This document shows, piece after piece, positions 6,275 through 25,061 of a DNA stretch of 64,000 nucleotides. Location of the stretch: NCBI GenBank assembly GCA_910579455.1, contig CAJTUT010000002.1, positions 44,353-108,352 on the forward strand. Reading direction: 5' to 3'. Position 1 is the first letter of the stretch, and each line of letters starts with the position of its first letter. A model generated the notes under the pieces. That model saw only the letters and a program-made list of their open reading frames with translations. It did no database searches and was not told the origin of the DNA. This DNA is from an uncultured Bacilli bacterium. GTDB taxonomy: Bacteria > Bacillota_I > Bacilli_A > RF39 > UBA660. A program made the position numbers and the translations under genes.

Positions 6275-7204
6275 TTAAACCACATTAACACTTCTTACTG
6301 AGGTACCTGTATTCCCATCGCTATCAGTTACCTTATAATATATATAATAAGTACCTAGTCTTGTTGTATCAATTCTATCTATTTTCTCTAAAGCACCATT
6401 ATTAGAATAATAATACGTCATAATAATAGAAGAAGTAGGAATTTTATCCTTATCATCTACTACCTTACTTACCCCTGCATCTATATAATTAGTTCCATGT
6501 TCAACATTAACACTAGACTCTCCATTTAATACAATAACTGGTGTAGTACCATCTACAATATCTTGTTCCTTTACATTATCTTGAACAGCACTCACAACAA
6601 TTCTAGCAGCAAAAGTTTTTCCCTGAACACTATTGTCAGCATCTTCTGTCAACCACATTTTTAATTCGTAGTCAATTTTATCATTTCCAGATTCTGCACT
6701 CAAACTACCACTATCCAAAAGCAGACTATCTGAAAGATACCTAGCATCAGACCAATTGCTATCTCCTAATTTTAGACTATATCGAATATATTTTCTATCT
6801 AGGGTTTTCTCATTAACAGCCATTTCTTCTAAACTAACATTATATTTAGCATTCACATCACCTGTATTCTTAATTGTAAAATGATAACTATCTGTAGCCA
6901 TTCCTTCACTATCACTCATAGGTGCTAAATTAGACATATGAATTTCTTTTCCGTCTTCAAATTTCACCTTAAAAGTTCCTGCTACAATTTCTGTTTCTTT
7001 TTTACTATCGACAGAAAAACGGAAAAATGCATAGCTTGTTCCTATTACAGACATCAATAAAAAAGCTGCTAAAACAATAATTTTTGTTATTTCTCTTCTA
7101 TTTTTCTGATGTAAATTATCATTATTTAATTCTACTGTTCTAAAATGATCTCCTACTTTTCCCTTTTTAAACTGTCTTTTCTTCTTACGATCCATGAATC
7201 TCAC
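6275..7204 (-). CDS. TasA/camelysin-like (SipW-cognate-type) secreted protein with a C-terminal DUF5011/Ig-like domain; short paralogue of the giant protein
   Basis: The N-terminus has a basic tail (KKGKVGDHFRTVELNNDNLHQKNRRE), a TM helix (IIVLAAFLLMSVIGTSYAFF) and then SVDSKKETEIVAGTFKVKF...MSNLAPMSDSEG...FTIKNTGDVNAKY. This aligns by eye with CalY/TasA (GGGTFAYFSDKE...AAGTLDL...DLKPGD...FLLQNSGSLTIK). The first ~205 aa are about 70% identical to the N-terminus of the 2724-aa protein. The C-terminus (PVIVLNGESSVNVEHGTNYIDAGV...YYIYYKVTDSDGNTG) is a DUF5011-type Ig-like fold. Confidence 0.55.
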   Translation of the reverse strand: MRFMDRKKKRQFKKGKVGDHFRTVELNNDNLHQKNRREITKIIVLAAFLLMSVIGTSYAFFRFSVDSKKETEIVAGTFKVKFEDGKEIHMSNLAPMSDSEGMATDSYHFTIKNTGDVNAKYNVSLEEMAVNEKTLDRKYIRYSLKLGDSNWSDARYLSDSLLLDSGSLSAESGNDKIDYELKMWLTEDADNSVQGKTFAARIVVSAVQDNVKEQDIVDGTTPVIVLNGESSVNVEHGTNYIDAGVSKVVDDKDKIPTSSIIMTYYYSNNGALEKIDRIDTTRLGTYYIYYKVTDSDGNTGTSVRSVNVV

Positions 7205-7288
7205 ACCTTACATTTACAATTATTCTAATTACCATTCTACAATACTTTTAAAAAATAATAAAGAGAAACAGCAAAAAAAGTAGTAACT

Positions 7289-8011
7289 TTACTTACTACC
7301 TTCCCTAGAAAAAACTAAAATATTATTTTTATAAATCTTATATCGAACTTTAACCGTTCCAATATTCGTTCCAAATTTTACTATATTTTTATTAGTTAAA
7401 TACTTTTCGATATTTTTTCTATTACTATCCCCTCTCAAATAATCATTAATATTCTTTACTGCTGATTCATCCTTTTTATCCATATAAAAATTTAATACTT
7501 CATGCGGATTCTTCACTTTATATTGGTTATAAATAACTTCATAGGTATTCCTACCTTTCTTTTTCATTTTTTTTATATCATATTTTATTAAAGGAATTTC
7601 TGCTATAACAGAAGAGGATAGATCATCTGTTGTTATAATATACTCATCAGTAGTTGGATTATACGTTATATATTGCTCTATCATATATGAGGTAATCCCT
7701 ACTTCCTGTATTTGTTTTTTATTTACATTCAGATCAAAATGACGATTTATAAATTCTACTATTTCCTCTACCCCCACATTATTTTTGTGATATTCGTTTT
7801 TGTAATAAACAACAGTATAACATATATAGTGATCTAAATCATTTTTCTCTAAAACATTCATATATGTCATCATTCTATCGCTATACTTTTTAATAGTAAA
7901 TTTCTCTAAATCGGACATTCTAAATCGATTAAGTATTAATAGGGATAATAGTAATATAATTATCCCTATCATAACATATTTAATTTTAATTATTCTTTTT
8001 ATTTTCTCCAT
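7289..8011 (-). CDS. membrane-anchored hypothetical protein (N-terminal TM, ~200-aa extracytoplasmic part)
   Basis: 240 aa with an N-terminal hydrophobic segment IGIIILLLSLLILN. It sits between the two TasA-like genes, 10 bp after the giant gene stop. Its size and position resemble TapA in the tapA-sipW-tasA operon, but there is no sequence motif to support that. Confidence 0.5.
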   Translation of the reverse strand: MEKIKRIIKIKYVMIGIIILLLSLLILNRFRMSDLEKFTIKKYSDRMMTYMNVLEKNDLDHYICYTVVYYKNEYHKNNVGVEEIVEFINRHFDLNVNKKQIQEVGITSYMIEQYITYNPTTDEYIITTDDLSSSVIAEIPLIKYDIKKMKKKGRNTYEVIYNQYKVKNPHEVLNFYMDKKDESAVKNINDYLRGDSNRKNIEKYLTNKNIVKFGTNIGTVKVRYKIYKNNILVFSREGSK

Positions 8012-8021
8012 AGACTATCTC

Positions 8022-11000
8022 CTACTCCATAAATTCTAGAATACAATACTCATATCCTGTTTCTTCGTCAGTATAAAATCTTACTTCATATCCTGGTTCT
8101 ACCTCAGTTGTAGTCTCTGGTTTTGCATTTGTTGAACCGATGATCCTTCCATCATAATATTTAAATATACCATTCCCTTTTATTACACCAATTCCTGTTA
8201 CTGTAGCAGTTGCTTGTATTAGTGGATTTTCTATTGAGACATTAGCATAATTAGTACCAGATCCATCCTTTATCCCCATTATAACAGTACCACTATCTAT
8301 GTAAATACCGTAAGCCATTCTACCATGAACATCGATTCTTCCACTTTCTAGTTTTATGTTAGAATCACTATTCGATGAGTATATACCTGCTGAGGTAATA
8401 TTACGACCACTAAATACATTTGTGTTTTCCCTCAAATAAATATTCGTATTTTTTAACGTTAAATTGGCAGCTGCTTGTGTAGATATACCATAATTACTAG
8501 TAAAGTTTTCTATATTAAAATCTGTATTTTCTATATTAATATTAGAATTATCATTTATTACAATAGCTGTTGCATCAGCCGAATTTACTGTAGTATTAGA
8601 TGTAATAGCTACATTTTTTATAGATGCATCAGAACTCAATACTATACCCACATATTGAGTGATGTCACCATCACTTGATATCGAACCACCCTCTATATTT
8701 AGTTGACCTTTTCGATGACGTATTATTGGATCACTATCACTAGTACGATAGCTATATATAATATTTGTATTAAGCAAATTTAATATAGCATTTTGATTAT
8801 TATTATCGATAGTAGAGTACATAGTTCCCCCTTGGATTGTTAATTCTCCACTATTATTTACGATATCTCTATATCCAAAATAATAACCAGATACACGATA
8901 AGTATTATTCCGTAAAAGGGCTTCATGATCTTCAGAAGTTTGGTTATAAAATAGATAACCACCAGTTTTCTTATCACTTTTATTTAATGTTGAGTTGCTT
9001 ATCTTACAATTTGAATAATTATATATTCCCGATGATATTACATCTAAAGTTATATCATTCGCTACTAGATTTGCCCCTGCATAATTATGAATTCCTGAAT
9101 ATCCTTTAAATGATGTGCCATTAGCCTCTATACTTGCATTAGCAAAATTAGTAATTAGATAATAATTCGTCGTTAAATTTTCTAATAAAATATCCTCCAA
9201 AACTAAATTTCCTTTATTCGAAATGATAATTGAATTTGTACTAATACTTAACTTTCCTTGATCTGCATTATCCCTTATAGATAATGTTCCTTCATTCATT
9301 ATTGCCTGATTTAGTCTTAGATGATGCCCGTTTAAATCTAATGTAATATTTTTTCCAGCAGTATTAACTTCCTCAAATACCTTAGAATCTTTAATAATCG
9401 TCAACGTATCTCCATTCTGAGATTCTAGTACAGCTGTTTTTAAACTCTTATATTGCATCTCGCCATTTTGAACAAAATATTCTGTTGCTTTTAATGTATT
9501 TCTATGATACATGACCTCGTCAATAATTTGAGTATCATCATCAATTACATAATCATTTGGTATTTTAGAAATTGCCCCATAGTATCCAGCTATTTGCCCA
9601 GATAAAGCACCATCATAGAATGATATAGTTCCATTACCTCCATTATATAGTCCATATTGTTCTCCTATTACTTCTGGACTTTTCGTACTTACTTCATCAT
9701 CCTTATTTCCTAACACCAAATTTGCATTATTTTTTGTTTCTATTCCATATGTTTTTCCTACAATTTTTCCTCCATATACATTTAAGTTTCCATTATTCAT
9801 GATGATACCATCTCCCGATTGTCCTGTTATGGTTCCTTGATATATATTAATTGTGGCACTAGCACTTGAACTTACAAAAATTCCTTCAGAACCAGAGATT
9901 TCTCCATTATAAATATCTAGAGTTCCTCCATTTACAGTTATACGATTACTTATGTTTGGAACCTTTGTTGCATCTTCTGGATCTCCTATTACTGTATTTC
10001 CATAACTACTAATTGATCCATAGCTTCCACTTTTTATTGTTATGTTTGCTCGTTCATGTGCTGAAGGATTTACCCTATAAATATTTGAATTCTCTATTGT
10101 CACATTTGCATTATTGCTAGCTGTAACTCCACCTCTATCAATTTCTACTCCTGTAATATTGACTGTTTTACCTGTTGCTATAGAAATAGTCGTGTCATGT
10201 TTACTATAAGAACTATAACTACCTCCTGTAATATCTATATCAGTTGCAATATACAATACTCTAGCACCATTGGCTGCACTATACGTTCCTCCTGTAATTT
10301 TTCCTTTTCCTGATAGATAAATTACACTTGCTCTTTCTGTTGTTTTTATCGTTCCTGAATTTACTGTTAAATCATTTGTTGACTTGATTGCATATTCACC
10401 ACTTACTACTGATGTGTTAGTATAGGATCCTGTAGCTTCTACACTACTATCTAATATTCTCAATTTTCCTTCATTTGTAATCATTTTTGAGTTTACAAGT
10501 TGCTTTCCACCCAAATCGATGGTTATTTCTTTTCCATTTGGTATTAATACTTCTTCTGCTATTGATACAGACTCAATTACTTCTATAGTACCTTCTGTAT
10601 CTATCGCATCAAGGGCTTTCTTGAAAGTATTATACTCTTCATCTCCTACCTTTAAGAAGTTTGTCATTTTTCCTAAATATGATGTGCTATATAGGATTCC
10701 ATCGACAGTTTCTTCACCTGTTTCTATACCATATCCATCAAGAAGTGTCGTAATTACTCCTGCATGTCCTGCAGTTGTTCCTTTTAATATTCCGTCATAG
10801 AATGATATAGTTCCATTACCTCCACTATATAGTCCATATTGTTCTCCTATTACTTCTGGACTTTTCGTACTTACTTCATCATCCTTATTTCCTAACACCA
10901 AATTTGCATTATTTTTTGTTTCTATTCCATATGTTTTTCCTACAATTTTTCCTCCATATACATTTAAGTTTCCATTATTCATGATGATACCATCTCCCGA

Positions 11001-14000
11001 TTGTCCTGTTATGGTTCCTTGATATATATTAATTGTGGCACTAGCACTTGAACTTACAAAAATTCCTTCAGAACCAGAGATTTCTCCATTATAAATATCT
11101 AGAGTTCCTCCATTTACAGTTATACCATTATATTTACTGATTATAGAAGGAAGTTTAGACTTATCATTTGCATCACCTATATTTACACGACCATTAGAGG
11201 TAAGCGCTGTAGACACCGATTCATAGTTTCCCTCTATCACATTAAGTATACCACTATTATTGGATATACAATATCTCCCTTTATAGGTTCCATTTTTAAT
11301 CACTAAATTACCTTTACCATTAATACTGTAATTCTGTACATCTATATTGGCATTATCTATGATTATTGTTCCGGAAGTATAAATACCGTTTTTACCTGTA
11401 GTAATGTTCACATCGACAATTTCTACATTTGCATCTGGTGACATTTTTATTGCGTAACTACCTGTCGATTGAAAATAACCACCATCAAGAATGAACTTGT
11501 CTGAACTAGATATATAAAGGGCATCACCTGAAATGGAATTAATATGAGAATTATTATCAATAGTTAATTCACCAGCATTTATATTTAACCCGTAACCACC
11601 TGTTGCATTAACATTTGAACGAATAATATTTAAATAACCACTGCTGTCTATTGTGTTTGTGTTTGTTGTCTGGCTTATAGTAATACCATCTAAACTTAAT
11701 GTAGCAGTGCTTTTGTTAGTTATTGTTTTAGATATTTTTAAGATTCCCTTTATTACACTACTATCTATTAATTTTAGATTTCCTGAATTGGTTACATCAT
11801 ATCCTGTTTCTACAGTGTAACCTGATACATCTATAATTACCTCTTTATTTTGGGCTAAATCAAGTGGATATGCTGCTTCGAAATCCCTTATTGCATAGAT
11901 CGTTCTATTTTTCTCAAAATCAGTATTCATATCTGTTATAAAGTCAATTGCATCTTGTAAATTAAAATAATAATTTGTACTAATAATTTCGTTACTATCC
12001 TCACTACTATAATTTACTGTTTTAGCTACTGCTCTTGTCAAGATTGAAGATGTCTCTTCTAAATATATTTTTTGATAACCATTACTATAATCGTGATCTG
12101 TAAACACTTCATATCCTTCTGGTTTGTTGTATACATAACCATCAAGTCCTAATTCTGCAGTTATTAATCCATCATAGAAATTCATTATTCCTTGCTGTTC
12201 TATTCCCTTTGTTGTTCCTTCTATACATGGATTATCCTTTAATACATCCCCATCATTTTCTCCTAAGGTTAATATAGAATGATTTACTATTGCCGTATTA
12301 GTTGTGTTCTTAATAGTACCATTGTTAAGAATTGTTAATGTACCATTATTTATTATTGTACTATCATTAACTCCTGTTACGGTTTTTCCATTCAAATCAA
12401 GAGTTATATCTTTTACATTTTCTACACTTTCTATTGTGTCTTTCAACATCACAATGGTATCGCCACTTTCTTTAGCAGCAGCCAATGCCTCTTCTAAACT
12501 TTTATAATATACCTTTTCTATTCTAGCAACAGCATCACTAGAACCTATTTCTGGTTTTTTTATGGTAATCGTATACTCCTTAGTTGCTGTAGAATAATTA
12601 TTAGTTGCTAAACAGGTCACTCGTATAGTTATTACAGTCCCAATAGCTAAATTGGAAAGATTTGATATTGTTACAGTTTTATCATCTAAAGTAACTTCCG
12701 CGTCAGTTTCCGTAACCTCTACTACACTAGTTTCTCCTCCATGTGAATCTACTATCATAAAAGAGTCACTATCTTGACCTTGATCAATGATTCTTTCATT
12801 AGAACTTAAATCAATATATCCCTGTGCACGTATAATGTCATAGGCCTTTCTATTATTATCTAATGTATAATTTTCAATACGTCCTCTTCCTCCTATAACA
12901 CTAGCTATAGAGACTTCTGATACATAACTACCTACATCAACTGCTTTTGACTGAATTAATTCTAATGCTTCGTTTTCTATTCGATCATTTAAACTATATT
13001 CATAATCTGGAGCTTGTCTTTCCCCATTATAAGAAAATTCAGTTGCCTCATCCCATGTAATATTCACCCTTTTAGGAGTGATAGTATGTGCAACACAACT
13101 TGATTGAAGAGGAAGACTCCCTTCCTTTCCTTCTAATACTGCTTTTACTGAATAATTACCTGCATCAATTGGAACAGATGACAACTCATTGCTACAATTT
13201 GTATCACTATAATATTGATAAGAAAGCTGTGAAGAATCTACACCTTCTGATACTTTTGCGTCATTTGCTTCTATTTCTCTACCAGTATATTCTTCAATTT
13301 TAGAATTTAAAGAGATACTTTCTGATCTTTTAAAAATTGCATATAGAGTCATATTCCCTGTAACAGTAGGAGGTGAGGTGAAACCGCTGGAAGAATCTTT
13401 ATTAGTGTGCCATCCTAAAAAGTCATATCCACTTTTTTTTGCAACTTCATCTAAATCAACAATATCCCCATATCTTAAAGTTTTATCTGGGATATTGCAA
13501 CTACCACCTGTTGTAGTACAATCATACTTTATCACATATTTTTTTTCTTTTGCCCTTGCAATTAGTTCCTTATTTCCATGAATTGTATACTCATCATTAG
13601 GATTTCCAATAACTGTATCATGATCATACCATTGACCACTAGCATAATGATCCCTACTTATAATATCTGGTAATGTCTTCGTACAATTATGACCCTCAAC
13701 AGTATAACGATCTCCATCCATTATTTGGTAGTTATCACACTGATCACTAGTAGATCCTATACTTTTAACAGACTCATCATCATTGGTATAAGAAACTTCC
13801 CATTTTCCTTTATATACCGCATAATACACTTCATTCTTTGTTGTAATGGAAGACTCAATATGACGATAATCAAATGGTCTAGTAGATAATCCATAATAAG
13901 TTCTATCATCCCCACCTTGTGATAAAAGAACCTCTTCTGGTACAGAAACTTCTTCTTCATTAATATGATAAGTCGCACTATCTTCATTTATTAACACAGA

Positions 14001-16196
14001 GTTAACCTTATTTGTTGAAAAAATGAACCTTTGTCCGTCGTTATAATAATAAAACTTAGTATCAATATTACCAGTATATACCGCATAATACACCTGATTA
14101 TTAGTAATGTTGGTATATATATCTTCCGTTTCCATATTGTTTAACTTAGAAGAAATTCCCTTATATGGTAGTCCCCTTAAGCCAATACTATTTACCACCT
14201 CATCAGAAGCTCTATAAGTACCCTTATTTTGATTATAAATTGTTTTATTTTCTGTTATAGATTCTACATTCCCATTATTATTATAATAGACCTTAATACT
14301 AATATCTTTTGAAGTAATTGCATAATATGTAGAATTATCAGATATCATTTTTTTTGTATTAATATCCCAGCTACCACTAGTATCGTTTTCATTTTGACTA
14401 AATCCTAGGATTTTATATCCTTCTCTTTCTATAGAAGGAGAAGATATTTCACAACTGGTAGCTTCTCCCCAAATCTCACAACTTTTAGTAGTAGAATCTA
14501 ATTGACTACCATTAGCAGAAAAGGTAACAGTTACTTCCTTATATACATTTACTGTAATATCAATCATAGATGAAGTAGCTGTATCTGTGACTGTTATAGT
14601 CGTAGTTCCAACAGAAACCCCCTGAATCACTCCATTCTTATCTACTGTTGCAATACCAGAATTACTACTCGCATATGATAAAGTACCCGTATTGTTGCTA
14701 ATATCCGCTTTTTTGGATTGCCCAACCTTTAAATTAATCTCATCGTCAGAAGAAGAAATATCACCAATTTTTTTTACTTCTATTTTTTTACTTACTACAT
14801 TATGGTTGGTATCATATACCCATAAATAATAAGTACCACTACTAGGAACCACGAATTCTTTATCATATTGATTCGTTACCTCCTCCAATTTAGTATAATT
14901 AGAAGTAGTTGGCATTTTATTATGATTACTTAAATAATAACCACCTATATTTCCCTCTTTTGCCATGATATGAACTGGAATATAGTACTTGTTATCCTTT
15001 CTGGTAATTGTCTCAGTAGTAATTTCAATACTTCCCTTAGGAATGATATGAACAACTCTAACAACACTATTAGTATTTCCCTTACTATCAATAACAATAT
15101 ACTTAACTGTATAAACCCCTTCAACAAAAGAGTTTACAGTTCCAACGGTAATGATCTTATCTGTCAAGACACCATCTTCTATATCCTCAGCACTAGCACC
15201 TAAATCTTGATAGGTTTCACCCTTTTTCAATTCTAAATTTGATTCCCCTACTAAATCAATAGTAGGAATGTGGTCATCAGAAGTAGGATTAACACTAACA
15301 CTTACAACTGTACACCCAATATTTCCATTTTTATCACTAACTCTATAATAAATATAGTAAATTCCTAATTTAGAAGGGTCCACATTATCAACGGTCATAG
15401 TATTTACTCCATCATAATATTCATATGTCTTAGTAACATTAGAAATATCAATACTCTGACCTGAACTATCCTTAATTTCATATGGAACAGGATCCGTAAA
15501 AGAATCATTCAAAGAGATATGAATAGACGTATTTGGAATGTTAATTACAGGGGCAACAAGATCATTAGCAGCACCGTTACTTTGTACAGCACTCACAACA
15601 ATTCTAGCGGCGTATGTTTTTCCTTGAACACTATTGTCAGCGTCCTCTCGTAGCCACATCTTAAGTTCATAATCTACCTCATCTTTTCCAGATTCTGCAC
15701 TTAAACTACCGCTGTTTAAAAGTAAACCATCAGCAAGAGATCTTGGACTTGTCCAACTCCCATCACTTAATTTAATACTATAATTAATATATTTTCTATC
15801 TAAAGTATTAGAAGATGCTGGAGTTTCTTCTAAACTAACATGATATTTAGCATCAATAGTTCCTGTATTTTTTATGGTAAAATGATAACCATCTGTACTC
15901 ATTCCTTCACTATCACTCATAGGTGCTAAGTTAGTCAAATGAATTTCATTTCCCTCCTCAAACTCAACCTTAAACGTTCCAGCCACAACTTCATGCTCAC
16001 TAGTATTATCAATTAAAACTTTAAATAATCCGTAGCTAGTGCCAATGACAGAAATTAATAAAAACATTACTAAAATAGCAATCTTTTTATATTCCCTTTT
16101 ATTCTTCCTTTTTAAATTATCATTATTGATTTCCACAGTTCTAAAACGATCACCAATTCTACCTTTATGAAAACTTTTTTTATTTTTGTTACTCAT
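8022..16196 (-). CDS. giant (2724 aa) secreted/surface multi-domain protein: N-terminal TasA/camelysin-like domain, 2x DUF5011 Ig-like, Big_2, Flg_new (Listeria-Bacteroides) repeats, >=4 parallel beta-helix modules
   Basis: One uninterrupted ORF. N-terminus: basic tail, TM, then IGTSYGLFKV...EVVAGTFKVEF..LTNLAPMSDSEG..FTIKNTGTIDAKY (TasA/CalY-like). Two DUF5011-like domains (DHIPTIDLVGESNLELKKGETYQDLGASAEDIEDGVLTD). Big_2 (TLSYASSNSGIATVDKNGVIQGVSVGTTTITV). Flg_new repeats (TVTFSANGSQLDS...EGYKILGF; KYVIKYDC...SGYDFLGWH). Recurrent beta-helix entry motifs (SLEEALAAAKESGDTIVMLKD...ITLDLNGKTV; GDTLTIIKDSK...ITLDLNGHHL) and Gly-rich G..I.N.G.L.I rungs. No C-terminal LPXTG. Confidence 0.8.
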   Translation of the reverse strand: MSNKNKKSFHKGRIGDRFRTVEINNDNLKRKNKREYKKIAILVMFLLISVIGTSYGLFKVLIDNTSEHEVVAGTFKVEFEEGNEIHLTNLAPMSDSEGMSTDGYHFTIKNTGTIDAKYHVSLEETPASSNTLDRKYINYSIKLSDGSWTSPRSLADGLLLNSGSLSAESGKDEVDYELKMWLREDADNSVQGKTYAARIVVSAVQSNGAANDLVAPVINIPNTSIHISLNDSFTDPVPYEIKDSSGQSIDISNVTKTYEYYDGVNTMTVDNVDPSKLGIYYIYYRVSDKNGNIGCTVVSVSVNPTSDDHIPTIDLVGESNLELKKGETYQDLGASAEDIEDGVLTDKIITVGTVNSFVEGVYTVKYIVIDSKGNTNSVVRVVHIIPKGSIEITTETITRKDNKYYIPVHIMAKEGNIGGYYLSNHNKMPTTSNYTKLEEVTNQYDKEFVVPSSGTYYLWVYDTNHNVVSKKIEVKKIGDISSSDDEINLKVGQSKKADISNNTGTLSYASSNSGIATVDKNGVIQGVSVGTTTITVTDTATSSMIDITVNVYKEVTVTFSANGSQLDSTTKSCEIWGEATSCEISSPSIEREGYKILGFSQNENDTSGSWDINTKKMISDNSTYYAITSKDISIKVYYNNNGNVESITENKTIYNQNKGTYRASDEVVNSIGLRGLPYKGISSKLNNMETEDIYTNITNNQVYYAVYTGNIDTKFYYYNDGQRFIFSTNKVNSVLINEDSATYHINEEEVSVPEEVLLSQGGDDRTYYGLSTRPFDYRHIESSITTKNEVYYAVYKGKWEVSYTNDDESVKSIGSTSDQCDNYQIMDGDRYTVEGHNCTKTLPDIISRDHYASGQWYDHDTVIGNPNDEYTIHGNKELIARAKEKKYVIKYDCTTTGGSCNIPDKTLRYGDIVDLDEVAKKSGYDFLGWHTNKDSSSGFTSPPTVTGNMTLYAIFKRSESISLNSKIEEYTGREIEANDAKVSEGVDSSQLSYQYYSDTNCSNELSSVPIDAGNYSVKAVLEGKEGSLPLQSSCVAHTITPKRVNITWDEATEFSYNGERQAPDYEYSLNDRIENEALELIQSKAVDVGSYVSEVSIASVIGGRGRIENYTLDNNRKAYDIIRAQGYIDLSSNERIIDQGQDSDSFMIVDSHGGETSVVEVTETDAEVTLDDKTVTISNLSNLAIGTVITIRVTCLATNNYSTATKEYTITIKKPEIGSSDAVARIEKVYYKSLEEALAAAKESGDTIVMLKDTIESVENVKDITLDLNGKTVTGVNDSTIINNGTLTILNNGTIKNTTNTAIVNHSILTLGENDGDVLKDNPCIEGTTKGIEQQGIMNFYDGLITAELGLDGYVYNKPEGYEVFTDHDYSNGYQKIYLEETSSILTRAVAKTVNYSSEDSNEIISTNYYFNLQDAIDFITDMNTDFEKNRTIYAIRDFEAAYPLDLAQNKEVIIDVSGYTVETGYDVTNSGNLKLIDSSVIKGILKISKTITNKSTATLSLDGITISQTTNTNTIDSSGYLNIIRSNVNATGGYGLNINAGELTIDNNSHINSISGDALYISSSDKFILDGGYFQSTGSYAIKMSPDANVEIVDVNITTGKNGIYTSGTIIIDNANIDVQNYSINGKGNLVIKNGTYKGRYCISNNSGILNVIEGNYESVSTALTSNGRVNIGDANDKSKLPSIISKYNGITVNGGTLDIYNGEISGSEGIFVSSSASATINIYQGTITGQSGDGIIMNNGNLNVYGGKIVGKTYGIETKNNANLVLGNKDDEVSTKSPEVIGEQYGLYSGGNGTISFYDGILKGTTAGHAGVITTLLDGYGIETGEETVDGILYSTSYLGKMTNFLKVGDEEYNTFKKALDAIDTEGTIEVIESVSIAEEVLIPNGKEITIDLGGKQLVNSKMITNEGKLRILDSSVEATGSYTNTSVVSGEYAIKSTNDLTVNSGTIKTTERASVIYLSGKGKITGGTYSAANGARVLYIATDIDITGGSYSSYSKHDTTISIATGKTVNITGVEIDRGGVTASNNANVTIENSNIYRVNPSAHERANITIKSGSYGSISSYGNTVIGDPEDATKVPNISNRITVNGGTLDIYNGEISGSEGIFVSSSASATINIYQGTITGQSGDGIIMNNGNLNVYGGKIVGKTYGIETKNNANLVLGNKDDEVSTKSPEVIGEQYGLYNGGNGTISFYDGALSGQIAGYYGAISKIPNDYVIDDDTQIIDEVMYHRNTLKATEYFVQNGEMQYKSLKTAVLESQNGDTLTIIKDSKVFEEVNTAGKNITLDLNGHHLRLNQAIMNEGTLSIRDNADQGKLSISTNSIIISNKGNLVLEDILLENLTTNYYLITNFANASIEANGTSFKGYSGIHNYAGANLVANDITLDVISSGIYNYSNCKISNSTLNKSDKKTGGYLFYNQTSEDHEALLRNNTYRVSGYYFGYRDIVNNSGELTIQGGTMYSTIDNNNQNAILNLLNTNIIYSYRTSDSDPIIRHRKGQLNIEGGSISSDGDITQYVGIVLSSDASIKNVAITSNTTVNSADATAIVINDNSNINIENTDFNIENFTSNYGISTQAAANLTLKNTNIYLRENTNVFSGRNITSAGIYSSNSDSNIKLESGRIDVHGRMAYGIYIDSGTVIMGIKDGSGTNYANVSIENPLIQATATVTGIGVIKGNGIFKYYDGRIIGSTNAKPETTTEVEPGYEVRFYTDEETGYEYCILEFME
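9613..9943. repeat. 331-bp intragenic direct repeat, copy A (about 99.7% identical to 10795..11125)
   Basis: Direct comparison of the sequence: 9613-9943 and 10795-11125 (offset 1182 bp) differ at a single position. Both encode ...EQYGLY(S/N)GGNGTISFYDG / ITVNGGTLDIYNGEISGSEGIFVSSSASATINIYQGTITGQSGDGIIMNNGNLNVYGGKIVGKTYGIETKNNANLVLGNKDDEVSTKSPEVIG. Confidence 0.9.
10795..11125. repeat. 331-bp intragenic direct repeat, copy B
   Basis: See copy A. Flanking sequence diverges immediately (9944 g versus 11126 c). Confidence 0.9.
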
Positions 16197-16227
16197 AAGT
16201 TCACATCCTACTAATTTGTTCTATTTT

Positions 16228-16256
16228 CTATTAACATTTTACAATATTTTTTGCAA
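16228..16256 (-). promoter_or_regulatory. candidate sigma-A promoter for the giant gene (-35 TTGCAA at 16251-16256; 17-nt spacer; extended -10 TGtTAATAG at 16228-16236 on minus)
   Basis: Motif match read from the reverse complement; located about 30-60 nt upstream of the ATG at 16196 and just downstream of the terminator of the preceding gene. Confidence 0.3.
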
Positions 16257-16272
16257 ATAGGAAAGAAAAATT

Positions 16273-16307
16273 TCAAAAAAAGAAGTGATGACAAACTTAT
16301 CATCACT
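16273..16307 (-). terminator. rho-independent terminator (stem agtgatga/tcatcact, 8-nt loop, U-tract on minus strand)
   Basis: Inverted repeat 16284-16291 / 16300-16307 preceded on the plus strand by an A-rich run 16275-16283. It terminates the 113-aa gene and insulates the giant gene. Confidence 0.5.
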
Positions 16308-16374
16308 TTCTAACCTGTAATGGTACAAAACATTAAAAGAAATATCATTATCTCCTTTTCAGGAATGAATCATC

Positions 16375-16716: not shown

Positions 16717-17087
16717 ATAACCCCTCCTTTTGACTACATATTATAACATAATATTCCATTATTTGCAAGATAAATAGAATAACTCAAGCTACAAACGAAA
16801 AGTTATGGAGTTCTAGTACAAACAAATGAGTGATTCGTTTTAAAGAAAAAATTGTCCCTTATCCTCCTCTTAATTCTAACTCTTCTTCATTATTCTATCT
16901 CTCATACTACACTAATATAACTAATAAGAGATAAATAATCATAATAAACTTTCTTCAGTTTTAATAGTTAAATATACATCTACTATATACAATAACAAGA
17001 AAATGGATAAACAATAATAAAACAAATCGATATGGAATTTATACTAGAAGATATTGCTCCATATTTTCTTTAGAATTTCTATCACGA

Positions 17088-19139
17088 CTATTTTTCTTTA
17101 ATAATATTCTTACTACAGAAATAAGTTATTAAGAAATAGCCTCCATAAATCATTATGATAAAGCAAGCTGTCATAATAATAGACGGTAATAATCCCTTTG
17201 TACCAAATGTTTCTAAAAAATAAGTACAAAACTTAATTCCAAAAATGGAATGAATTATAGCAAGGATCAATGGCATAAGAAAGAAAATTCCTATTTGTCT
17301 AAATAATGCCCTGTTAATTAGTTTTTCATCAGTACCTATTTTTCTTAACATCTTGAATCTCTCTTTGTTATCACTAGATTCTGATAATTCCTTTAAAGCA
17401 AGAATTGCAGCACTGGATATTAAGAAAATAATCCCTAGATATAGTCCGATAAAAGTAACCATTCCTCCAAGTCCCAAGCAGGCTTCTGCAATATCTAATC
17501 TAGTATTACTACTTGGAATAATATATTGATCATTATCTTGAACAAAGTGAAGTTTTTCCTCAAACTCCTGTTTTGCCTCTTTTGTCCTTGCCTTATAATT
17601 AGCCGTCAGTATACTACTAACACGATACTCTTCTTTTACTACGTGGTCAGGGACAACAAAGAATCCCATATTAGTATGATTACCAGACATTTGAAGAAAA
17701 CCATCTTGACATACTTTATATTTCGGACTCAAAACATGATCAAAAATGCGAATTGAAATACCCTGTTTTAGAGGAATATCCCGTATTTTTGACATAGATT
17801 CAAGATTGGCAACCACTATATATTCGTCATCATTCAAATGATAAGTCTTTTTACCAAAAAGCTTTGCAAGCTTATTATAATCGCTAATTCGAACAATATT
17901 TTCTCTCTGATCATAGTGCACAAATCTATGTTTTTCTTGTAATAGTTCAAAACTACTTCCAAGTGAATCTTTAAAAGTAAACTCAGAAGATTCATAAACA
18001 GTAACCGTTACAATATCTTTTAAATCGTCCTCTATATCAACACCACTCCGTTTTAAAGACTCCATAATTGTTAAATTAGAATTTTTCACCATTTGTTCTG
18101 TATAATAATCTGATATATCACTTGATTGTAAATTAATCACTCGATAAAGTTGAATATCCGCAGGAGCAAGTTCATTTAGATTTTTTGTCATAGAATTTTT
18201 TATTGATAAAGCACTGGATAAAACACACAAGGTTACAAATAGCATAATACAAATAATAGACATTGAAAATACAGTCGTATTTACTTTTGAACTAATCTGT
18301 CTTAAAGTAAAGCTATTTAACCCTTTATAATAAAGATTCTTCACTGCCATAACAATCTTTAGTAAAAGTCCTGATAAAGACCAAAAAATAAAGAAGGTTG
18401 AAAGGCATCCCAAGGCAATAGGAATATAAATTTCATTAGCATTGTGTATAGTATCGATACCAGCAGTTACCATGTAGTATGCGTATCCCAGAAAAATACT
18501 AGATATAATAAATATAATAACACAAAGCCATGGATTTTTAAATTTAACCCTTTCAGATTTTTTATTAAAATGTAATAAATCAATTAGCTTACATCTACCA
18601 ACACTAATGGCATTAAAGATGATAACGAATAAATACATAATACTAAAATACAAAAGACACTTCATACTAGCTTCTAGAGAAAAGATAAACTCAAATCTTT
18701 CTACATCCGCCTCAAACATACCTGCTACTAATATACTCATGAATTGGGATAAAATAAATCCTAACCCAAGCCCTACAATTAAAGAAATAATTCCAATTAT
18801 TAATGTCTCTAAAAACAGAATCAATGAAATTTTCCGTTTGCTCATACCAAGTGTTAAATAGATGCCAAATTCCTTATTTCTTCTTTTCATTAAAAATCTG
18901 GATGCATAGATAATCAGAAATCCCAAAATAAAAGAAACAAAGACACTAACTCCTGCCAACATATTAGTCATTAGTTTTATAATCTCCTTGGTTGATTTTG
19001 TAACATTCATCATAACAGTTTGAGAGTCTATCGCATTAAATACATAAAAAATAGCAACTCCCAATATCAGTGTAAAAAAATAAATCGCATAATCTTTTAT
19101 ACTTCTTATAATATTTTTAACAGAAAGTTTAAAGAGCAT
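17088..19139 (-). CDS. ABC transporter permease, FtsX-like, BceB-type (10 TM with a large extracellular domain between TM7 and TM8)
   Basis: 683 aa with four N-terminal TMs, a long hydrophilic domain (~aa 300-520), then further C-terminal TM clusters. It overlaps the upstream ATPase gene and follows an RR-HK pair, the classical BceRS-BceAB arrangement. Confidence 0.75.
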   Translation of the reverse strand: MLFKLSVKNIIRSIKDYAIYFFTLILGVAIFYVFNAIDSQTVMMNVTKSTKEIIKLMTNMLAGVSVFVSFILGFLIIYASRFLMKRRNKEFGIYLTLGMSKRKISLILFLETLIIGIISLIVGLGLGFILSQFMSILVAGMFEADVERFEFIFSLEASMKCLLYFSIMYLFVIIFNAISVGRCKLIDLLHFNKKSERVKFKNPWLCVIIFIISSIFLGYAYYMVTAGIDTIHNANEIYIPIALGCLSTFFIFWSLSGLLLKIVMAVKNLYYKGLNSFTLRQISSKVNTTVFSMSIICIMLFVTLCVLSSALSIKNSMTKNLNELAPADIQLYRVINLQSSDISDYYTEQMVKNSNLTIMESLKRSGVDIEDDLKDIVTVTVYESSEFTFKDSLGSSFELLQEKHRFVHYDQRENIVRISDYNKLAKLFGKKTYHLNDDEYIVVANLESMSKIRDIPLKQGISIRIFDHVLSPKYKVCQDGFLQMSGNHTNMGFFVVPDHVVKEEYRVSSILTANYKARTKEAKQEFEEKLHFVQDNDQYIIPSSNTRLDIAEACLGLGGMVTFIGLYLGIIFLISSAAILALKELSESSDNKERFKMLRKIGTDEKLINRALFRQIGIFFLMPLILAIIHSIFGIKFCTYFLETFGTKGLLPSIIMTACFIIMIYGGYFLITYFCSKNIIKEK

Positions 19140-19896
19140 CGTTCAAATCACCACCAAGCATTGTGACAACATCAATTATCTTGTCAAAAAATTCACGCCT
19201 TTCATCATCACCTCTATGAATTTCATTAAAAACTTTTCCATCTTTAATAAAAATAACACGAGTTGCATAACTAGCTGTAAAGGCATCATGGGTAACCATT
19301 AAAATAGTTGCTTTCAACTCCTTATTTAAAAACTGAAATCTCTCTAATAACATTTTAGCAGATTTAGAATCCAAGGCTCCTGTTGGTTCATCCGCAAGTA
19401 CTAACTTTGGATTGGTAATAATTGCCCTAGCAGATGCCACTCTTTGTTTTTGGCCACCTGACATTTGATAGGGATATTTATTTAATATATCCTGAATATT
19501 TAATTCCCTAGCTACCTCTTTAATCCGTTCATCAATCTGATTTGCCTTTACATTTTGAATAGACAATGCTAATGCAATATTTTCATAGGCAGTTAAAGTA
19601 TCCAAAAGATTAAAATCCTGAAAGATAAATCCTAACTCTTCTCGTCGAAATTTATTAAGATGATTGCCTCGTAATTTGGTAATATCCTCTCCTCCAACAT
19701 AAATATGACCAGATGTTACCTTATCAATAGTTGATATTAAATTTAGTAATGTCGTTTTTCCACTACCACTAGCTCCCATAATAGCAACAAATTCTCCCTT
19801 TTCCACCTCAAAGGAAAGATTATTGATTGCCTTCGTTAAGCTAGACTTATTTCCATAGTATTTTTCAATTTCTTCTATTCTTAAAACTTTTTCCAT
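19129..19896 (-). CDS. ABC transporter ATP-binding protein (BceA-type)
   Basis: Walker A GASGSGKTTL, signature LSGGQKQR, Walker B LVLADEPTGALD, H-loop VTHD. The start at ATG 19896 (MEKVLRIEEIEKYYG) has the RBS AAAGGAGA; the track start at 19920 is probably too far upstream. Confidence 0.85.
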   Translation of the reverse strand: MEKVLRIEEIEKYYGNKSSLTKAINNLSFEVEKGEFVAIMGASGSGKTTLLNLISTIDKVTSGHIYVGGEDITKLRGNHLNKFRREELGFIFQDFNLLDTLTAYENIALALSIQNVKANQIDERIKEVARELNIQDILNKYPYQMSGGQKQRVASARAIITNPKLVLADEPTGALDSKSAKMLLERFQFLNKELKATILMVTHDAFTASYATRVIFIKDGKVFNEIHRGDDERREFFDKIIDVVTMLGGDLNDAL

Positions 19897-19983
19897 ACTA
19901 TTTCTCCTTTCTATCACCATTTTAGTAAAAAATATGTCAAATGTCCCTCGTTTAATATTACCGAATATTACAATTTTGTAATT

Positions 19984-21003
19984 TCATCGCTCCGTATGAT
20001 AAAAATCATTGTTTCCAAAAATAATTTTAACTTCTGTACCCTCATGATAAACGGATGAAATTTCTAAAATATGTCCCATTTTCTTACATAATTTATCTAC
20101 TATATATAATCCCATTCCTGTAGACTTTGTTTTCCTCCTCCCATTTTCTCCTGTAAAAGACTTTTTGCATACATAATTTAAATCACCTTTTTGTATTCCT
20201 ATTCCATTATCTACAATATTTAAAATAGTTTGATCTTTCTGAATTTCAGCAAATATTCTTATATATGATTTTCTTTTCTCATCCCTATATTTAATGCTAT
20301 TATTGATAATCTGATTTAAAATAAACTCTAACCATTTCATATCACTATAAACTTCAATGTTTCCCAAATCCACTTCTAAATCAATTTTACTTTCTAATAA
20401 ATCATCTTTATTTTTGATTAATACATTACCGACCATTTTCTCTAAGGATACTTTTCTAATCACAAAGTCCTCCTCTGTATAATTGCTTCTTACATAATAT
20501 AATACCTGATCAATATAATTATCCAGTCTTCTAACTTGTTCAAGAAATGATTTATGAAGTTTTTCCTTATGATTATGACAAAGTAGTATCAAACTAGAAA
20601 TAGGTAGTTTTACTTCATGAATCCACATTTCTATATACTCCTTAAAATCTTCTATATCCTTTTTATTCTTTTGTACATTTTCTGACATAGATCTATCAAT
20701 TTCATATAAATTATGATATAAAATCTCTCCTTCATAAAAACTAGGCTTTGAAATAGTCTCCAATACTAAGTACTTTTGATCTAGTAACTCTATATTACTA
20801 ATAAGCTCATCATAAAATCGTTTTTTTCTAATAAAATTAATACCAAAAAGCAGAATATGCATCATAAAAAAGATAAAGGTAATAGAAAAAATTAAAGAAA
20901 TATTTATGTTAAAAACAAGAAGTAATAATAATATCACAGCATAAGAAAAGAAAATTAATAAAATAGATAAATAGTGATCCACAATGTACTTACTTAATTT
21001 CAT
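19984..21003 (-). CDS. sensor histidine kinase, intramembrane-sensing BceS-type (two N-terminal TM helices, no extracellular domain)
   Basis: 339 aa; two TMs in the first ~60 aa; an H-box-like region (IHEVKLPIS), an N-box/G-boxes (NSIKY..., DNGIGI, GMGL) and a HATPase_c C-terminus. Confidence 0.8.
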   Translation of the reverse strand: MKLSKYIVDHYLSILLIFFSYAVILLLLLVFNINISLIFSITFIFFMMHILLFGINFIRKKRFYDELISNIELLDQKYLVLETISKPSFYEGEILYHNLYEIDRSMSENVQKNKKDIEDFKEYIEMWIHEVKLPISSLILLCHNHKEKLHKSFLEQVRRLDNYIDQVLYYVRSNYTEEDFVIRKVSLEKMVGNVLIKNKDDLLESKIDLEVDLGNIEVYSDMKWLEFILNQIINNSIKYRDEKRKSYIRIFAEIQKDQTILNIVDNGIGIQKGDLNYVCKKSFTGENGRRKTKSTGMGLYIVDKLCKKMGHILEISSVYHEGTEVKIIFGNNDFYHTER

Positions 21004-21662
21004 AATAAAATATATCCCTGTCCCTTTCTAGTTTCAATCACATTACAGTATCCCAATTCACTCAATTTACTTCTCAACCGACTAATATTAACTGTTAATG
21101 CATTATCATTAATGTACTCATCGTTATTCCATAAATCTGTCATTAAAACATCTCGGGTTACAATCTTTCCTTGATTATTTAATAAATAACTAAATACAAT
21201 CATTTCGTTTTTGGTTAATTCTATTTCCTCCTCATTCTTTTTTAAAATCCCTTTACTTGGAAAAAATTCTAATTCTCTATATTTGTAAGAGTCAACTTTT
21301 TGTTCCATCCTTCTCAATACATTTTGAATTCTTAAAAGTAAAATAGTTGGGTTATATGGTTTAGTAATATAATCATCTGCCCCATAAGACATAGATAGAA
21401 CCTCATCCAATTCACTAACACGACTAGTAACCATAATAATGGGAATATTCGTCTTCTTTCTAACTTCCCTCAACAAAGTTTCTCCATTTAAAAAAGGAAT
21501 GTTAATATCTAATAAAACTAAATCAGCATTACTATTTATAATTTCCTCAAAAGAATTGGAAAAATTATTTAAGATGTTTACAACATAACCTGAATGTTCT
21601 AATAGATTCTTTAACTCTTTGCAAATTGTTTGATCGTCCTCTACTATCATAATTCTTTTCAC
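21000..21662 (-). CDS. OmpR-family response regulator (BceR-type)
   Basis: Receiver motifs MIVEDD..., LVLLDINIP, SELDEVL plus a winged-helix C-terminus (LTKNEMIVFSYLL..., RLRSKL). The track ORF (start 21752) carries a hydrophobic N-terminal artefact; the likely start is GTG 21662 or ATG 21650, after a GGTGGA RBS. Confidence 0.8.
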   Translation of the reverse strand: MKRIMIVEDDQTICKELKNLLEHSGYVVNILNNFSNSFEEIINSNADLVLLDINIPFLNGETLLREVRKKTNIPIIMVTSRVSELDEVLSMSYGADDYITKPYNPTILLLRIQNVLRRMEQKVDSYKYRELEFFPSKGILKKNEEEIELTKNEMIVFSYLLNNQGKIVTRDVLMTDLWNNDEYINDNALTVNISRLRSKLSELGYCNVIETRKGQGYILL

Positions 21663-21957
21663 AAAACATTCCACCTTTAATAATAGTATATCATAAAATA
21701 AAACTTTAAAAAGAATAGAAAAATTTGGGTCCAATTTTTTACAAAAAATCATTATAGAATGATGACAATTTTAAAAGTTTAGTAAAATATTATAAATTTC
21801 TTCTCAATATTTACCCATATCAATATAGAACATTTTAAGAATGTTCTTTTCATGTGATTTAATTAGGCAATTTCTAAAGTTTTAGCTCTAATTGTTTGGA
21901 TTTCCTTCAATTTTTCCTAACAAAACAGCCTCACATACATGATATCCAGATTTTATT

Positions 21958-23040
21958 TTATGTCAGTTTCCCTGGCATATTTATATTACCATAAAAAAGA
22001 CTTTTGACAGGTTTTCTATTTAAAGTTCGAATAGTTCGAACAGATTTCCCAATGGTACCCTTAAGGATGAAGAATAATAACTTTTTTAGAGTAAAGTCTC
22101 GTTCTATTTTTGATAAATTTGCTTTTAATAAAGGTATCATACTAGCAGTTGCACTAATACAGCTAACTTCAATAGAATTTAAAAAATCTAAATTTTCTAG
22201 GTAATTAGTATGTTCACCGCATACTCCTATCTCAATTTTTTTATTTCCAACTTTGGCCCTATAAATAGATTCAATAATTTTATCTTTTGTATCATCATTT
22301 AAATAATTAAAATCATTATCTTGTTTATCGCGTGATTTTTTTGTTATACTTTCTTTTAAATAGTGTAATCTAAAGGAAATAAAATCAACTAATTTTGAAA
22401 TTCTATCAGCGTTATAAATAGATTGCACATTTTCTATCATAGCACCAATTTATAGTTTATATTATGTATTTTATTAACATTTACCCATTGCTTATATTTT
22501 TCTTCCTCGGGTGCACTATTAATGTAAGCTTCTCTAGCTGTTAAAGTACCATCTATCACTTTTTTTTACATCTTCTGAATTAAAACCTAAAATTGCCATA
22601 GAACTAACAAATAAATCAATTTTTTGTTATTCTATTAAATTTTCCCATTTTTCAGAATATTTTAACCTAGGCTTATAATATTCATTGTTTGCCATTTCCA
22701 TTATAGAAATATTTGAATATTCGTTTTCATTATCAATACTAAACATAATTGCATAGTTAAAATTTAATTTATCACTTATAATATCACCAACAATTAAACC
22801 CAATTGCGTATAAACTTGACTTTCTGAATGATTAGGATATCCCCTAAATCACCAAACGCATCCCTTATCTATTTTAAATGTACACTAACTATCACTGCTA
22901 TAAGTATAAAGTCTAGGAAACAAATCACTTTCAAAATCAAAAAAATCTAATTTTTTTCATGCAAATCAAATGCAAAAGAAATTAAATTCACAGGTTCTAA
23001 TTCAGTATTTTTACAGTTTTTTAATAGCATATTTTTATTC
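21958..23040 (-). pseudogene. decayed gene of unknown function (about 360 codons broken by >=3 frameshifts/stops)
   Basis: Hand translation of the minus strand from 23035 downwards gives MLLKNCKNTELEPVNLISFAFDLHEKKLDFFDFESDLFPRLYTYSSDS* ... RGYPNHSESQVYTQLGLIVGDIISDKLNFNYAIMFSIDNENEYSNISIMEMANNEYYKPRLKYSEKWENLIE* ... and then runs into the 160-aa ORF 21958..22440. The text is protein-like but is interrupted. Confidence 0.45.
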
Positions 23041-23195
23041 ACCTAAATTATAATACTATTGATTTTGTCAATATACAAGTGTGTTTTACTACACTGTCAC
23101 ATTTTATCACAAAACATTGTATAAAGAACAAATATTATAGGAACATTTAATAAGTTGGGTGGAGCCAAACTTCATAAAAGAAGGGAGGCGATGCA

Positions 23196-23279
23196 ATGAA
23201 CAAGAAAGATTTACAAATCTTTGCTCTAGTAATTATTATCTTCCTTTTACTATTATTGTTATTTATAACTCTAATATAA
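23196..23279 (+). CDS. 27-aa hydrophobic peptide ORF (MNKKDLQIFALVIIIFLLLLLLFITLI) with a strong RBS
   Basis: AAGGGAGG sits 7 nt upstream of the ATG. It has a single predicted TM helix and is the only well-signalled plus-strand ORF in an otherwise minus-strand region. It is below the size cutoff of the supplied ORF track. Confidence 0.3.
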   Translation: MNKKDLQIFALVIIIFLLLLLLFITLI

Positions 23280-23380
23280 AAGAAATCCACCTAACTCATC
23301 CAATGATTTAGGTGGTAACTATTAATATGGCAAACACTCAACATCGGCATATTGAATGTTCCTCTTTATTTTATGTTTTT

Positions 23381-23929
23381 TTAATCATTTGTTTCATAGT
23401 AGTAAGATGTTTCAATTCCCTTAAAAACACTCTCTAAACTTAAATCATCTGTTAAATTATTTTCTATTAAAGTTTTAATTTCTAAAGTGTTAATAGGGCT
23501 TCTTTCCATAGCCTGTAGATATAATTTTTTATCTATATTTTCCCAATTGACAATCTTGTTTAAATTTTTCTTTAATATTAAATCTAACCAAATTCTTGTA
23601 CTGCGACCATTTCCCTCTAAAAATGGATGAGCAATATTCATTTCCACATACTTATCTATAATTTCATTTAAATTTGTTTCACTCATTGTTTCAATTTTCT
23701 TTAACATTTCTTCTAAATATAGAGAGTTTCCAAATCTAAAATTACCTTTTGAAATATTTTCTTTTCTAATATCACCTGCAAAATCGTATAAACCATCAAA
23801 TAGATATTTATGAATTTGTTGTAATCCTTTTATTGTACCAACTTCAATATTATCTATATTGCCACTTGAAAATAAGTCTTTTGCATTTTCTAAACTTTTT
23901 TTATCTATTTCGTTCATAAAATCCACCAC
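23381..23929 (-). CDS. Fic family protein (Fic/Doc fold, NmFic-like single-domain class)
   Basis: The canonical Fic motif [12 protein letters not shown] (HxFx(D/E)GNGRxxR) occurs in a 182-aa protein. The C-terminal ...[10 protein letters not shown] resembles, but does not perfectly match, the class III inhibitory (S/T)xxxE(G/N) helix. Confidence 0.8.
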
Positions 23930-24290
23930 TTTTTACGAATATTTCTATTGCTTTTATACTTCTATATTCTAGCATAAAATCGTAGATTTTACAATACACG
24001 ATCAAGATTAAAGGTATAAAGATATCTCTAATTCTTGCGAATTAAATACTGTATTTTCTTTAAGATATCATCCAAATATCTTTTTCTTTTTTGCCTCAAT
24101 ATTCATTTCGTTTTCTTTTAATTGTCATAGACTTGCTAGGAAATATGTACCTAATATTATCATTATAGTATATTATTTCTTTATTTTCGTCTTATCAGTA
24201 AAATGTATAATAGGAGATAATGCTTGATTACCTACAATATCATTTGCAAAGAAATAATTGAATGAGAAATTGCATTAAAACTACTACTAT

Positions 24291-24581: not shown

Positions 24582-24658
24582 ATCTTATTTCTACACTTTG
24601 GTCTATAAAGTAATCAGCCATTTTGATATTACAAGTCTTTTTATATACTTTCTTTTTC

Positions 24659-24958: not shown

Positions 24959-24974
24959 ACTTTTTCACTCCTTT

Positions 24975-25012: not shown

Positions 25013-25061
25013 CACGGTTTAATCTATGTTTTAACTCCAAAAGTTGGAGCGTATTCACATA

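Follow-up and report, generated by a model that had tools for sequence, protein, structure and literature searches.

The window analyzed here is a 64,000-nucleotide (nt) stretch of contig CAJTUT010000002.1 from an uncultured Bacilli bacterium, and it carries two paralogous genes whose products begin with the same kind of long N-terminal tail. The giant gene (8022..16196, minus strand) encodes 2,724 amino acids (aa), arranged as the tail, a signal segment, a TasA-like N-terminal domain (N-domain), Ig-like domains, and beta-helix-like repeats. The small paralogue (6275..7195, minus strand) encodes 306 aa, in which the tail, signal segment, and N-domain are followed by one Ig-like domain. An earlier sequence-only reading of this DNA had singled out the tails as unusually long for the n-region of a signal peptide, and the length is borne out: each tail has 38 residues, is translated, and is predicted to lie on the cytoplasmic side of the membrane.

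In the giant protein, the tail comprises codons 1 to 38 exactly (16083..16196, minus strand; MSNKNKKSFHKGRIGDRFRTVEINNDNLKRKNKREYKK, then IAILVMFLLISVIGTSYGLF), has a net charge of +10, and is predicted to form a cytoplasmic n-region. The small tail comprises codons 1 to 38 counted from the true ATG (7082..7195, minus strand; MDRKKKRQFKKGKVGDHFRTVELNNDNLHQKNRREITK, then IIVLAAFLLMSVIGTSYAFF), with a net charge of +8. Both tails are hydrophilic and strongly basic and are followed by a hydrophobic core of ∼13 residues, the sequence G-T-S-Y-G/A, and two hydrophobic or aromatic residues. The hydrophobic core and c-region occupy residues 39 to 56 of the giant protein (16029..16082, minus strand; IAILVMFLLISVIGTSYG) and of the small one (7028..7081, minus strand; IIVLAAFLLMSVIGTSYA), with predicted signal-peptidase sites at G56|L57 and A56|F57, respectively. 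The layout of the site includes small residues at −3 and −1 and a helix-breaking Gly at −5, after a hydrophobic core of only ∼13 residues. The most conserved part of the giant tail, K11 to I23 (16128..16166, minus strand; KGRIGDRFRTVEI), corresponds to K11 to L23 of the small tail (7127..7165, minus strand; KGKVGDHFRTVEL), and the two tails score 43 and 51 bits, respectively, against the tail hidden Markov model (HMM) described below. When the motif G-D-x-F-R-T-V-E-x-N-N-D-N-L was written as a degenerate DNA pattern, it matched the window twice, exactly at the two tails, and matched none of 100 shuffles of the window.

Both start codons are preceded by ribosome-binding sites: AGGA (16206..16209, minus strand) lies 9 nt upstream of ATG 16196, and AGGTG (7204..7208, minus strand) lies 8 nt upstream of ATG 7195. 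The start assigned mechanically to the small open reading frame (ORF), GTG 7204, falls inside the latter ribosome-binding site, and ATG 7195 is conserved in all orthologues. The true start of the small gene is therefore ATG 7195, so that the small tail extends over 7082..7195 rather than the 7088..7204 reported by the sequence-only reading, which had placed the giant tail correctly. In the window, as in nine related loci, the positionally conserved ATG is preceded by an in-frame stop codon 4 to 8 codons away. The two genes do not have in common any other in-frame start with a ribosome-binding site ahead of the hydrophobic core; the sole internal candidate is a GTG at V21 of the giant gene, which is GTA in the small gene.

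Farther upstream, a promoter-like box (TATTGTAAAAT; 16236..16246, minus strand) is located ∼40 nt from the giant ATG, and the same box (TATTGTAGAAT; 7234..7244, minus strand) precedes the small paralogue. The box, TATTGTA[AG]AAT, is nearly invariant at this distance in both paralogues and all orthologues (alignment columns 103 to 113). The ∼45 nt 5′ of the two genes (16221..16262 and 7222..7262, minus strand) are near-identical to each other and to those of all orthologues, CTTT.TTATTTTTTAAAAGTATTGTA[AG]AAT. Because this promoter-like or operator-like box is shared, the sequences suggest that the giant and small genes are co-regulated. A terminator-like hairpin (16283..16308, minus strand) ends the gene upstream of the giant gene and separates the two, so the giant gene has its own short leader.

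The pattern of substitution in the tail is that of a coding sequence under constraint. The ratio of nonsynonymous to synonymous substitution rates (dN/dS, Nei-Gojobori) is 0.08 to 0.32 in the tail, where dS (0.3 to 1.5) is not below that of the adjoining domain (0.30 to 0.86). With dS as high as in the domain and dN/dS low, it is the peptide that is constrained, rather than an RNA or DNA element. Taken together, the upstream in-frame stops, the ribosome-binding sites and conserved box, the upstream terminator, and the dN/dS values show that the tail is translated; that it is both translated and cytoplasmic is very probable, the cytoplasmic topology being the part that we infer.

The domain that the tail precedes was compared with known families by several routes. 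The small protein matched Peptidase_M73 (camelysin/TasA, PF12389) over residues 37 to 122 (numbered from ATG 7195) with 19.5 bits (E = 1e-3), below the 22.5-bit cutoff, and 15 of 51 family members matched the same model at E ≤ 0.01 (best, 2.8e-7); two members matched the NCBIfam model BioflmMtrxTasA at ∼0.002. The Ig-like domain PF16403 follows the N-domain in Pfam searches. An hhalign comparison with a manually entered sequence of Bacillus subtilis TasA placed GTSYA|FF on GGTWA|AF and AGTFKV on SGTLDL (E = 6e-5, probability 65%). The TasA-type signal end, G-x-[TS]-[WY]-A followed by an aromatic residue, is present as GTSYA|FF in the small protein and as GTSYG|LF in the giant one. An AlphaFold2 model of the N-domain built from a 51-sequence alignment has the TasA jelly-roll fold and is confident (mean predicted local distance difference test [pLDDT] score, 83); residues 26 to 63 form one helix, and residues 64 to 73, just ahead of the first strand, are of low confidence, which in the model is compatible with a free donor strand. 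The Pfam and NCBIfam matches, the model, and the hhalign result thus support the view that the N-domain is TasA-like, a distant member of the TasA/camelysin superfamily, with a signal-peptidase site homologous to that of TasA. Assembly of this cargo into fibers by donor-strand exchange would be a candidate property only. TasA signal peptides are processed by SipW in Bacillus. The only signal peptidase in the window is a bacterial-type signal peptidase I (TIGR02227) at 50063..50578; for archaeal TasA homologues, processing by a generic peptidase is thought likely (PMC9245690).

The sequence-only reading had argued for function from the conservation of the tail between otherwise diverged paralogues. 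This argument could not be sustained: the two proteins share 56% identity over 306 aa, and within their N-terminal 207 residues it is the tail that is less conserved (55 to 61% identity versus 71 to 73% in the next domain), so they are not otherwise diverged. A function is nevertheless likely on other grounds, namely, the low dN/dS of the tail and, more strongly, a family-wide block that is nearly free of insertions and deletions. A word-index protein search found only 11 relatives; those with 82 to 92% identity keep the tail, and those with 44 to 48% identity have a recognizable version of it, so the loss from orthologues that would have spoken against the tail was not seen. The orthologues of the giant protein are 2,722 aa (locus L002) and 2,919 aa (locus L015) long. 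One public protein, P0002, is the small paralogue minus 26 residues (the TDSYHFTIKNTGDVNAKYNVSLEEMA region; 280 versus 306 aa), which could be an in-frame deletion variant or an assembly artifact.

To survey N-termini across the family, an exhaustive profile search was run, which returned 5,962 matches, 177 of them below 1e-30, and yielded 145 usable N-termini. In all 145, a G-[TS]-S-Y-A-like site comes after a hydrophobic core, and the n-regions range from 3 to 73 residues: 12 or fewer in 63, 13 to 19 in 23, 20 to 29 in 25, 30 to 45 in 29, and over 45 in 5. The motif [KRNH][YF][RK]x[VI]x[ILFVT] occurs in 30/145 N-termini, and 25 of these 30 belong to the class with n-regions of 30 to 45 aa. 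An alignment of 29 tail-bearing sequences, including ∼25 clusters at 50% identity, showed that the 30-residue block from K10 to I39 is almost indel-free, with the consensus KKG[KR]IGD[RK][YF]R[KT]VxI N x x N x x x x N [KR][KR] E [YI] x K I. The core columns K11, G12, G15, Y/F18, R19, V21, and I23 span 2.6 to 3.7 bits, and the best columns of the tail reach 3.0 to 3.7 bits (K11, 3.7; I39, 3.5; Y/F18 and R19, 3.4 each; G12, 3.2; V21 and K38, 3.1 each; G15, 3.0). The cleavage-site columns G52, S54, and Y55, at 4.1 to 4.3 bits, are above all of these.

In a neighbor-joining tree of the mature domain alone, 22 motif-bearing sequences fall into one group of 26. The relatives beside this group have shortened or degenerate tails, and Lys-rich tails of low complexity, unrelated to this one, are found at other places in the tree. 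Four proteins (P0042, P0043, P0074, and P0107) have n-regions of 48 to 73 residues that are of low complexity (Lys/Ser/Thr), carry net charges of up to +23, and lack the motif. Since long n-regions arose independently on other branches, n-region expansion is recurrent in the family. Together, the alignment and the tree indicate that the tail is an ancestral, selected feature of one clade of ∼25 to 30 clusters, in a family whose n-regions expand readily. Within the clade, the tail is present on giant (1.0 to 3.7 thousand aa) and small (200 to 400 aa) members alike.

The wider distribution of the tail was examined with motif patterns and with a profile. A looser motif pattern, run against 185,579 species with one genome apiece, returned three true matches in two metagenome-assembled genomes (MAGs) named uncultured Bacilli bacterium, one from mouse gut (small and giant copies) and one from rabbit, and all three precede the same TasA-like domain. 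Two further matches, in a delta-proteobacterium and a Balneolaceae bacterium, were rejected as chance; in neither does a hydrophobic segment follow. MAGs in which the genes are present include GCA_948850035.1, MGBC131677, Lapin-020 bin59, and the one to which VISC19-1 scaffold_8 belongs. A pattern validated on eight positive controls had 0 matches in JGI metagenome contigs, so that collection seems to be without this lineage. A 30-column tail HMM gave every known tail 31 to 52 bits and the other 1,496 ORF pieces from the window and 15 loci 7 bits or fewer. No Pfam or NCBIfam model covers the tail, ten clusters that were looked up gave no name for their 50 listed members in the sources, and a literature search did not find a description of the tail. 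We regard the tail as a probable new extension of a secretion signal, specific to this family and confined to a rare lineage of gut Bacilli.

Our preferred interpretation, to which we give a probability of about 55%, is that these 38 residues lengthen, by a fixed amount and in this clade alone, the n-region of a cleavable TasA-type Sec signal peptide and act before or during export. Translation would begin at the annotated ATG, and the charge of +8 to +10 should hold the tail on the cytoplasmic face while the membrane is crossed by the next ∼13 residues, which are hydrophobic. A type I signal peptidase would then cut after G-T-S-Y-A/G, at A56|F57 in the small protein and G56|L57 in the giant one, freeing the N-terminal strand of the TasA-like jelly-roll domain. 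On the evidence of the sequence, cleavage after residue 56 is probable. We consider it quite probable that the tail has a sequence-specific role beyond mere charge, because its spacing is fixed, its Gly, Asp, aromatic, and aliphatic positions are conserved, and its dN/dS is low. The retention of nonbasic residues (G12, G15, D16, Y/F18, V21, I/L23, E35, and Y36) at a constant distance from the membrane makes it likely that something reads the tail, most likely at the cytoplasmic face or inner leaflet, either ahead of translocation or in the course of it. Candidate readers would be the targeting or motor machinery or a factor that sets where or when export takes place, in a logic that would resemble the YSIRK/GXXS, KxYKxGKxW, or ESPR extensions. 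That the role is one of targeting or sorting is a tentative proposal made by analogy. A more specific scheme, in which the tail is a dedicated and hitherto undescribed sorting or holding signal, a cytoplasmic or inner-leaflet reader brings the small subunit and the giant adhesin to the same export site or time point, and their donor strands co-polymerize into a fiber bearing the 2700-residue adhesin, is speculative and on balance unlikely. Fibers incorporating giant adhesins are suggested by the TasA-like, donor-strand-type N-domain at the head of both giant and small relatives; the giant relatives reach 3,667 aa beside small relatives of 200 to 400 aa.

Several observations count against a signal extension that is read during export. 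Relatives with 31 to 33% identity have ordinary n-regions of ∼5 to 15 residues, and the n-regions of 63/145 family members have, as noted above, no more than 12, so the extension is dispensable for export of this fold in general. By dN among orthologues, the tail evolves ∼2 times as fast as the adjoining domain. Only the TasA-like domain was seen as cargo, in searches that covered a small part of any one genome, and this single cargo domain makes the tail unlike general sorting signals. The AlphaFold2 model has pLDDT scores of <50 over residues 1 to 17 and thus gives no sign of an autonomous fold. No candidate partner that might read the tail lies beside the genes, the neighbors being an unrelated ABC transporter, a two-component system, and parE/parC. 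Cleavage is deduced from the motif and from TasA homology alone; no SipW-type (archaeal-type) signal peptidase was found in the 64-kb window or in the orthologous loci, and TasA-like sites with an aromatic P2′ residue are poor substrates of Escherichia coli LepB (PMC10269814).

We weighed four alternatives, of which the strongest is an uncleaved signal anchor, followed by generic positive ballast, a function after cleavage, and mis-annotation. The first of these would hold the protein N-in, C-out, with the tail as a permanent cytoplasmic stub that tethers the giant adhesin. A conserved stub of fixed length would suit a permanent membrane protein, the AlphaFold2 helix runs continuously from residue 26 to 63, SipW is missing nearby, and no other attachment is apparent: the giant protein ends in ...CILEFME with no visible hydrophobic C-terminal segment, although wall-sorting and wall-binding motifs were not searched for. 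Against this, G-[TS]-S-Y-A surpasses every other feature of the N-terminus in conservation (the 4.1- to 4.3-bit columns) and aligns with the known cleavage site of TasA, the short hydrophobic core before the Gly is typical of cleaved signals, and the 306-aa paralogue carries the same signal. A TasA-like donor strand would moreover require a free N-terminus (PMC9674648). We regard a permanent anchor as unlikely.

Less likely still is that the tail is a Lys/Asn-rich n-region that arose from low G+C content (29% in the window) and the positive-inside rule, with no specific partner, its conservation reflecting ancestry and a need for charge. Long basic n-regions are indeed common and variable in the family (59/145 have at least 20 residues, and several, such as those of P0042, P0043, and P0074, are plain K/S/T runs), and the tail evolves faster than the domain. 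However, Gly, Asp, Tyr/Phe, Val, Ile, and Glu are among the best-conserved positions, which are not just Lys/Arg, the block is almost indel-free across clusters that differ by >50%, dN/dS is low throughout its range, and the HMM separates true tails from everything else by a gap between 7 and 31 bits.

The released signal peptide of ∼56 residues, a helix with the 38-residue cytoplasmic part, could itself be the product, for example, a secretion reporter or the precursor of a signaling peptide. The conservation of the tail independently of the mature protein and the co-regulation suggested by the shared promoter-like box would fit such a role, but no regulator or signal-peptide peptidase adjoins the genes, and we find it very improbable. 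Finally, an annotation artifact, whether a downstream start (a possibility that the sequence-only reading had itself raised) or an RNA or DNA element in place of a peptide, can be dismissed almost completely, since codon 21, GTG in the giant gene, reads GTA in its small paralogue, the conserved ATG with its ribosome-binding site is closely preceded by stops, synonymous changes accumulate while amino acids are kept, and Rfam gave no match in the tail region.

A gene for a 240-aa single-pass membrane protein (7289..8011, minus strand) lies between the paralogues in conserved synteny (227 to 243 aa in L002, L007, and L009). By analogy with TapA for TasA, this protein is a candidate assembly or anchoring partner; neither it nor a neighboring 113-aa gene product matched a Pfam or NCBIfam model. 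In the more distant locus L015, the giant gene is at the same place beside parE/parC, and both the small paralogue and the 240-aa gene are missing. In L001 to L004, the interval between the 243-aa gene and the small paralogue (for example, L002 9063..9744) holds fragments of an rve-type integrase, with ORFs of 59 and 98 to 102 aa; the same interval in the window is only an 85-nt spacer, versus integrase fragments in the mouse-gut relative.

Within the giant gene, a direct repeat of at least 300 nt (9541..9840 and 10723..11022; 88% identity, 1,182 nt apart) represents a duplicated block of ∼100 residues or more (…NGGTLDIYNGEISGSEGIFVSSSASATINIYQGTITGQSGDG…). In a related metagenome contig (L005, region 3589..3660), a single in-frame stop splits the giant gene into a 489-aa piece (P0005) and a piece of >3,600 aa in the same frame, and this could be a pseudogene, a sequencing error, or a case of read-through. 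Compared with L015, the window has ∼12 kb of extra DNA (16717..28900) between the giant gene and a Mur-ligase/AI-2E/Dtd/RelA block. The extra segment holds an FtsX-type ABC transporter, a two-component system, a truncated fragment of a PEP-utilizing enzyme (21958..22440), a Fic-domain gene (23381..23929), and a tRNA (25065..25138).

If co-export and co-polymerization proved true, they would amount to a novel means by which Gram-positive cells display giant proteins that have no obvious C-terminal anchor. The TasA-like domain that bears the 30-residue block stands at the head of small subunits and of adhesins of 2.6 to 3.7 thousand residues in uncultured gut Bacilli. If a partner reads the tail, it would offer a handle on the export and assembly of giant surface proteins in these bacteria; if there is no partner, the tail would show how far an n-region can grow under selection. 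Either way, the 30-column profile can be used for annotating the clade. To our knowledge, conserved signal-peptide extensions are rare, and each one that has been studied (YSIRK/GXXS, KxYKxGKxW, and ESPR) revealed a step of secretion before translocation.

Three other motifs were considered and rejected for the window proteins. A Tat signal ([ST]-R-R-x-F-L-K) would need the twin arginines, and R-R is found only in the small window protein (NRREITK), with RK, QK, or KR in the orthologues and the paralogue. A class III prepilin signal (Gly/Ala at −1, Glu at +5) does not fit the boundary K38-I39 (3.1 and 3.5 bits), and there is no Glu in the core. The c-di-GMP-binding pattern RxxxR occurs as R13..R17 in the giant tail but as K..H in the small one.

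Among characterized systems, TasA is the closest to the cargo. Its n-region has ∼6 residues, versus 38 here with a motif of their own; the tapA-sipW-tasA operon is absent from this locus, as is SipW from the window, and the domain is fused here to Ig-like domains and, in one paralogue, to ∼2,500 further residues. ESPR, the extended signal peptide region (PF13018) of Gram-negative autotransporters and two-partner-secretion proteins, is likewise a conserved N-terminal extension before an otherwise normal signal peptide on very large adhesins. It belongs to a different phylum and envelope, however, and is partly hydrophobic, in contrast to the hydrophilic tail, which is also carried by small members of 200 to 400 aa; no Pfam match to it was obtained at E ≤ 1, and 51 family members gave none either.

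The KxYKxGKxW signal domain (TIGR03715) of the Lactobacillales resembles the tail in that the window proteins, with K-x-F-x-K-G-[KR]-x-G, agree with it at five positions and that both are found on very large surface proteins. Its Trp is missing here, and the Phe is poorly conserved in the wider clade (1.15 bits); moreover, KxYKxGKxW directly precedes the hydrophobic core, whereas the corresponding residues here are 24 residues away, and there was no model match. YSIRK/GXXS signals, too, are long signal peptides of Gram-positive bacteria in which a conserved aromatic and basic motif precedes the hydrophobic core, and the YSIRK motif works ahead of translocation, directing secretion to the septum (PMC11841062, PMC12004944). 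The [YF]SIRK and GxxS residues are nevertheless absent here, where the tails read ..GD[RH]FRTVE.. and the cores IAILVMFLLISVIG and IIVLAAFLLMSVIG. The YSIRK motif abuts the core and occurs on many cargo proteins, whereas the tail motif lies 15 to 20 residues from the core and occurs on one domain only; no NCBIfam match was found at E ≤ 1, although very short models may be lost to the filters of HMMER. With the defining residues missing and no model matching, the tail falls outside both the YSIRK and KxYKxGKxW families, so the analogy drawn by the sequence-only reading was reasonable as a statement of how the tail works and fails as one of membership. Nor does the tail belong to the ESPR, Tat, or prepilin classes, whose defining features were each checked and are absent; rather, it works like an extended signal peptide, for which YSIRK/GXXS is the best functional analogy.

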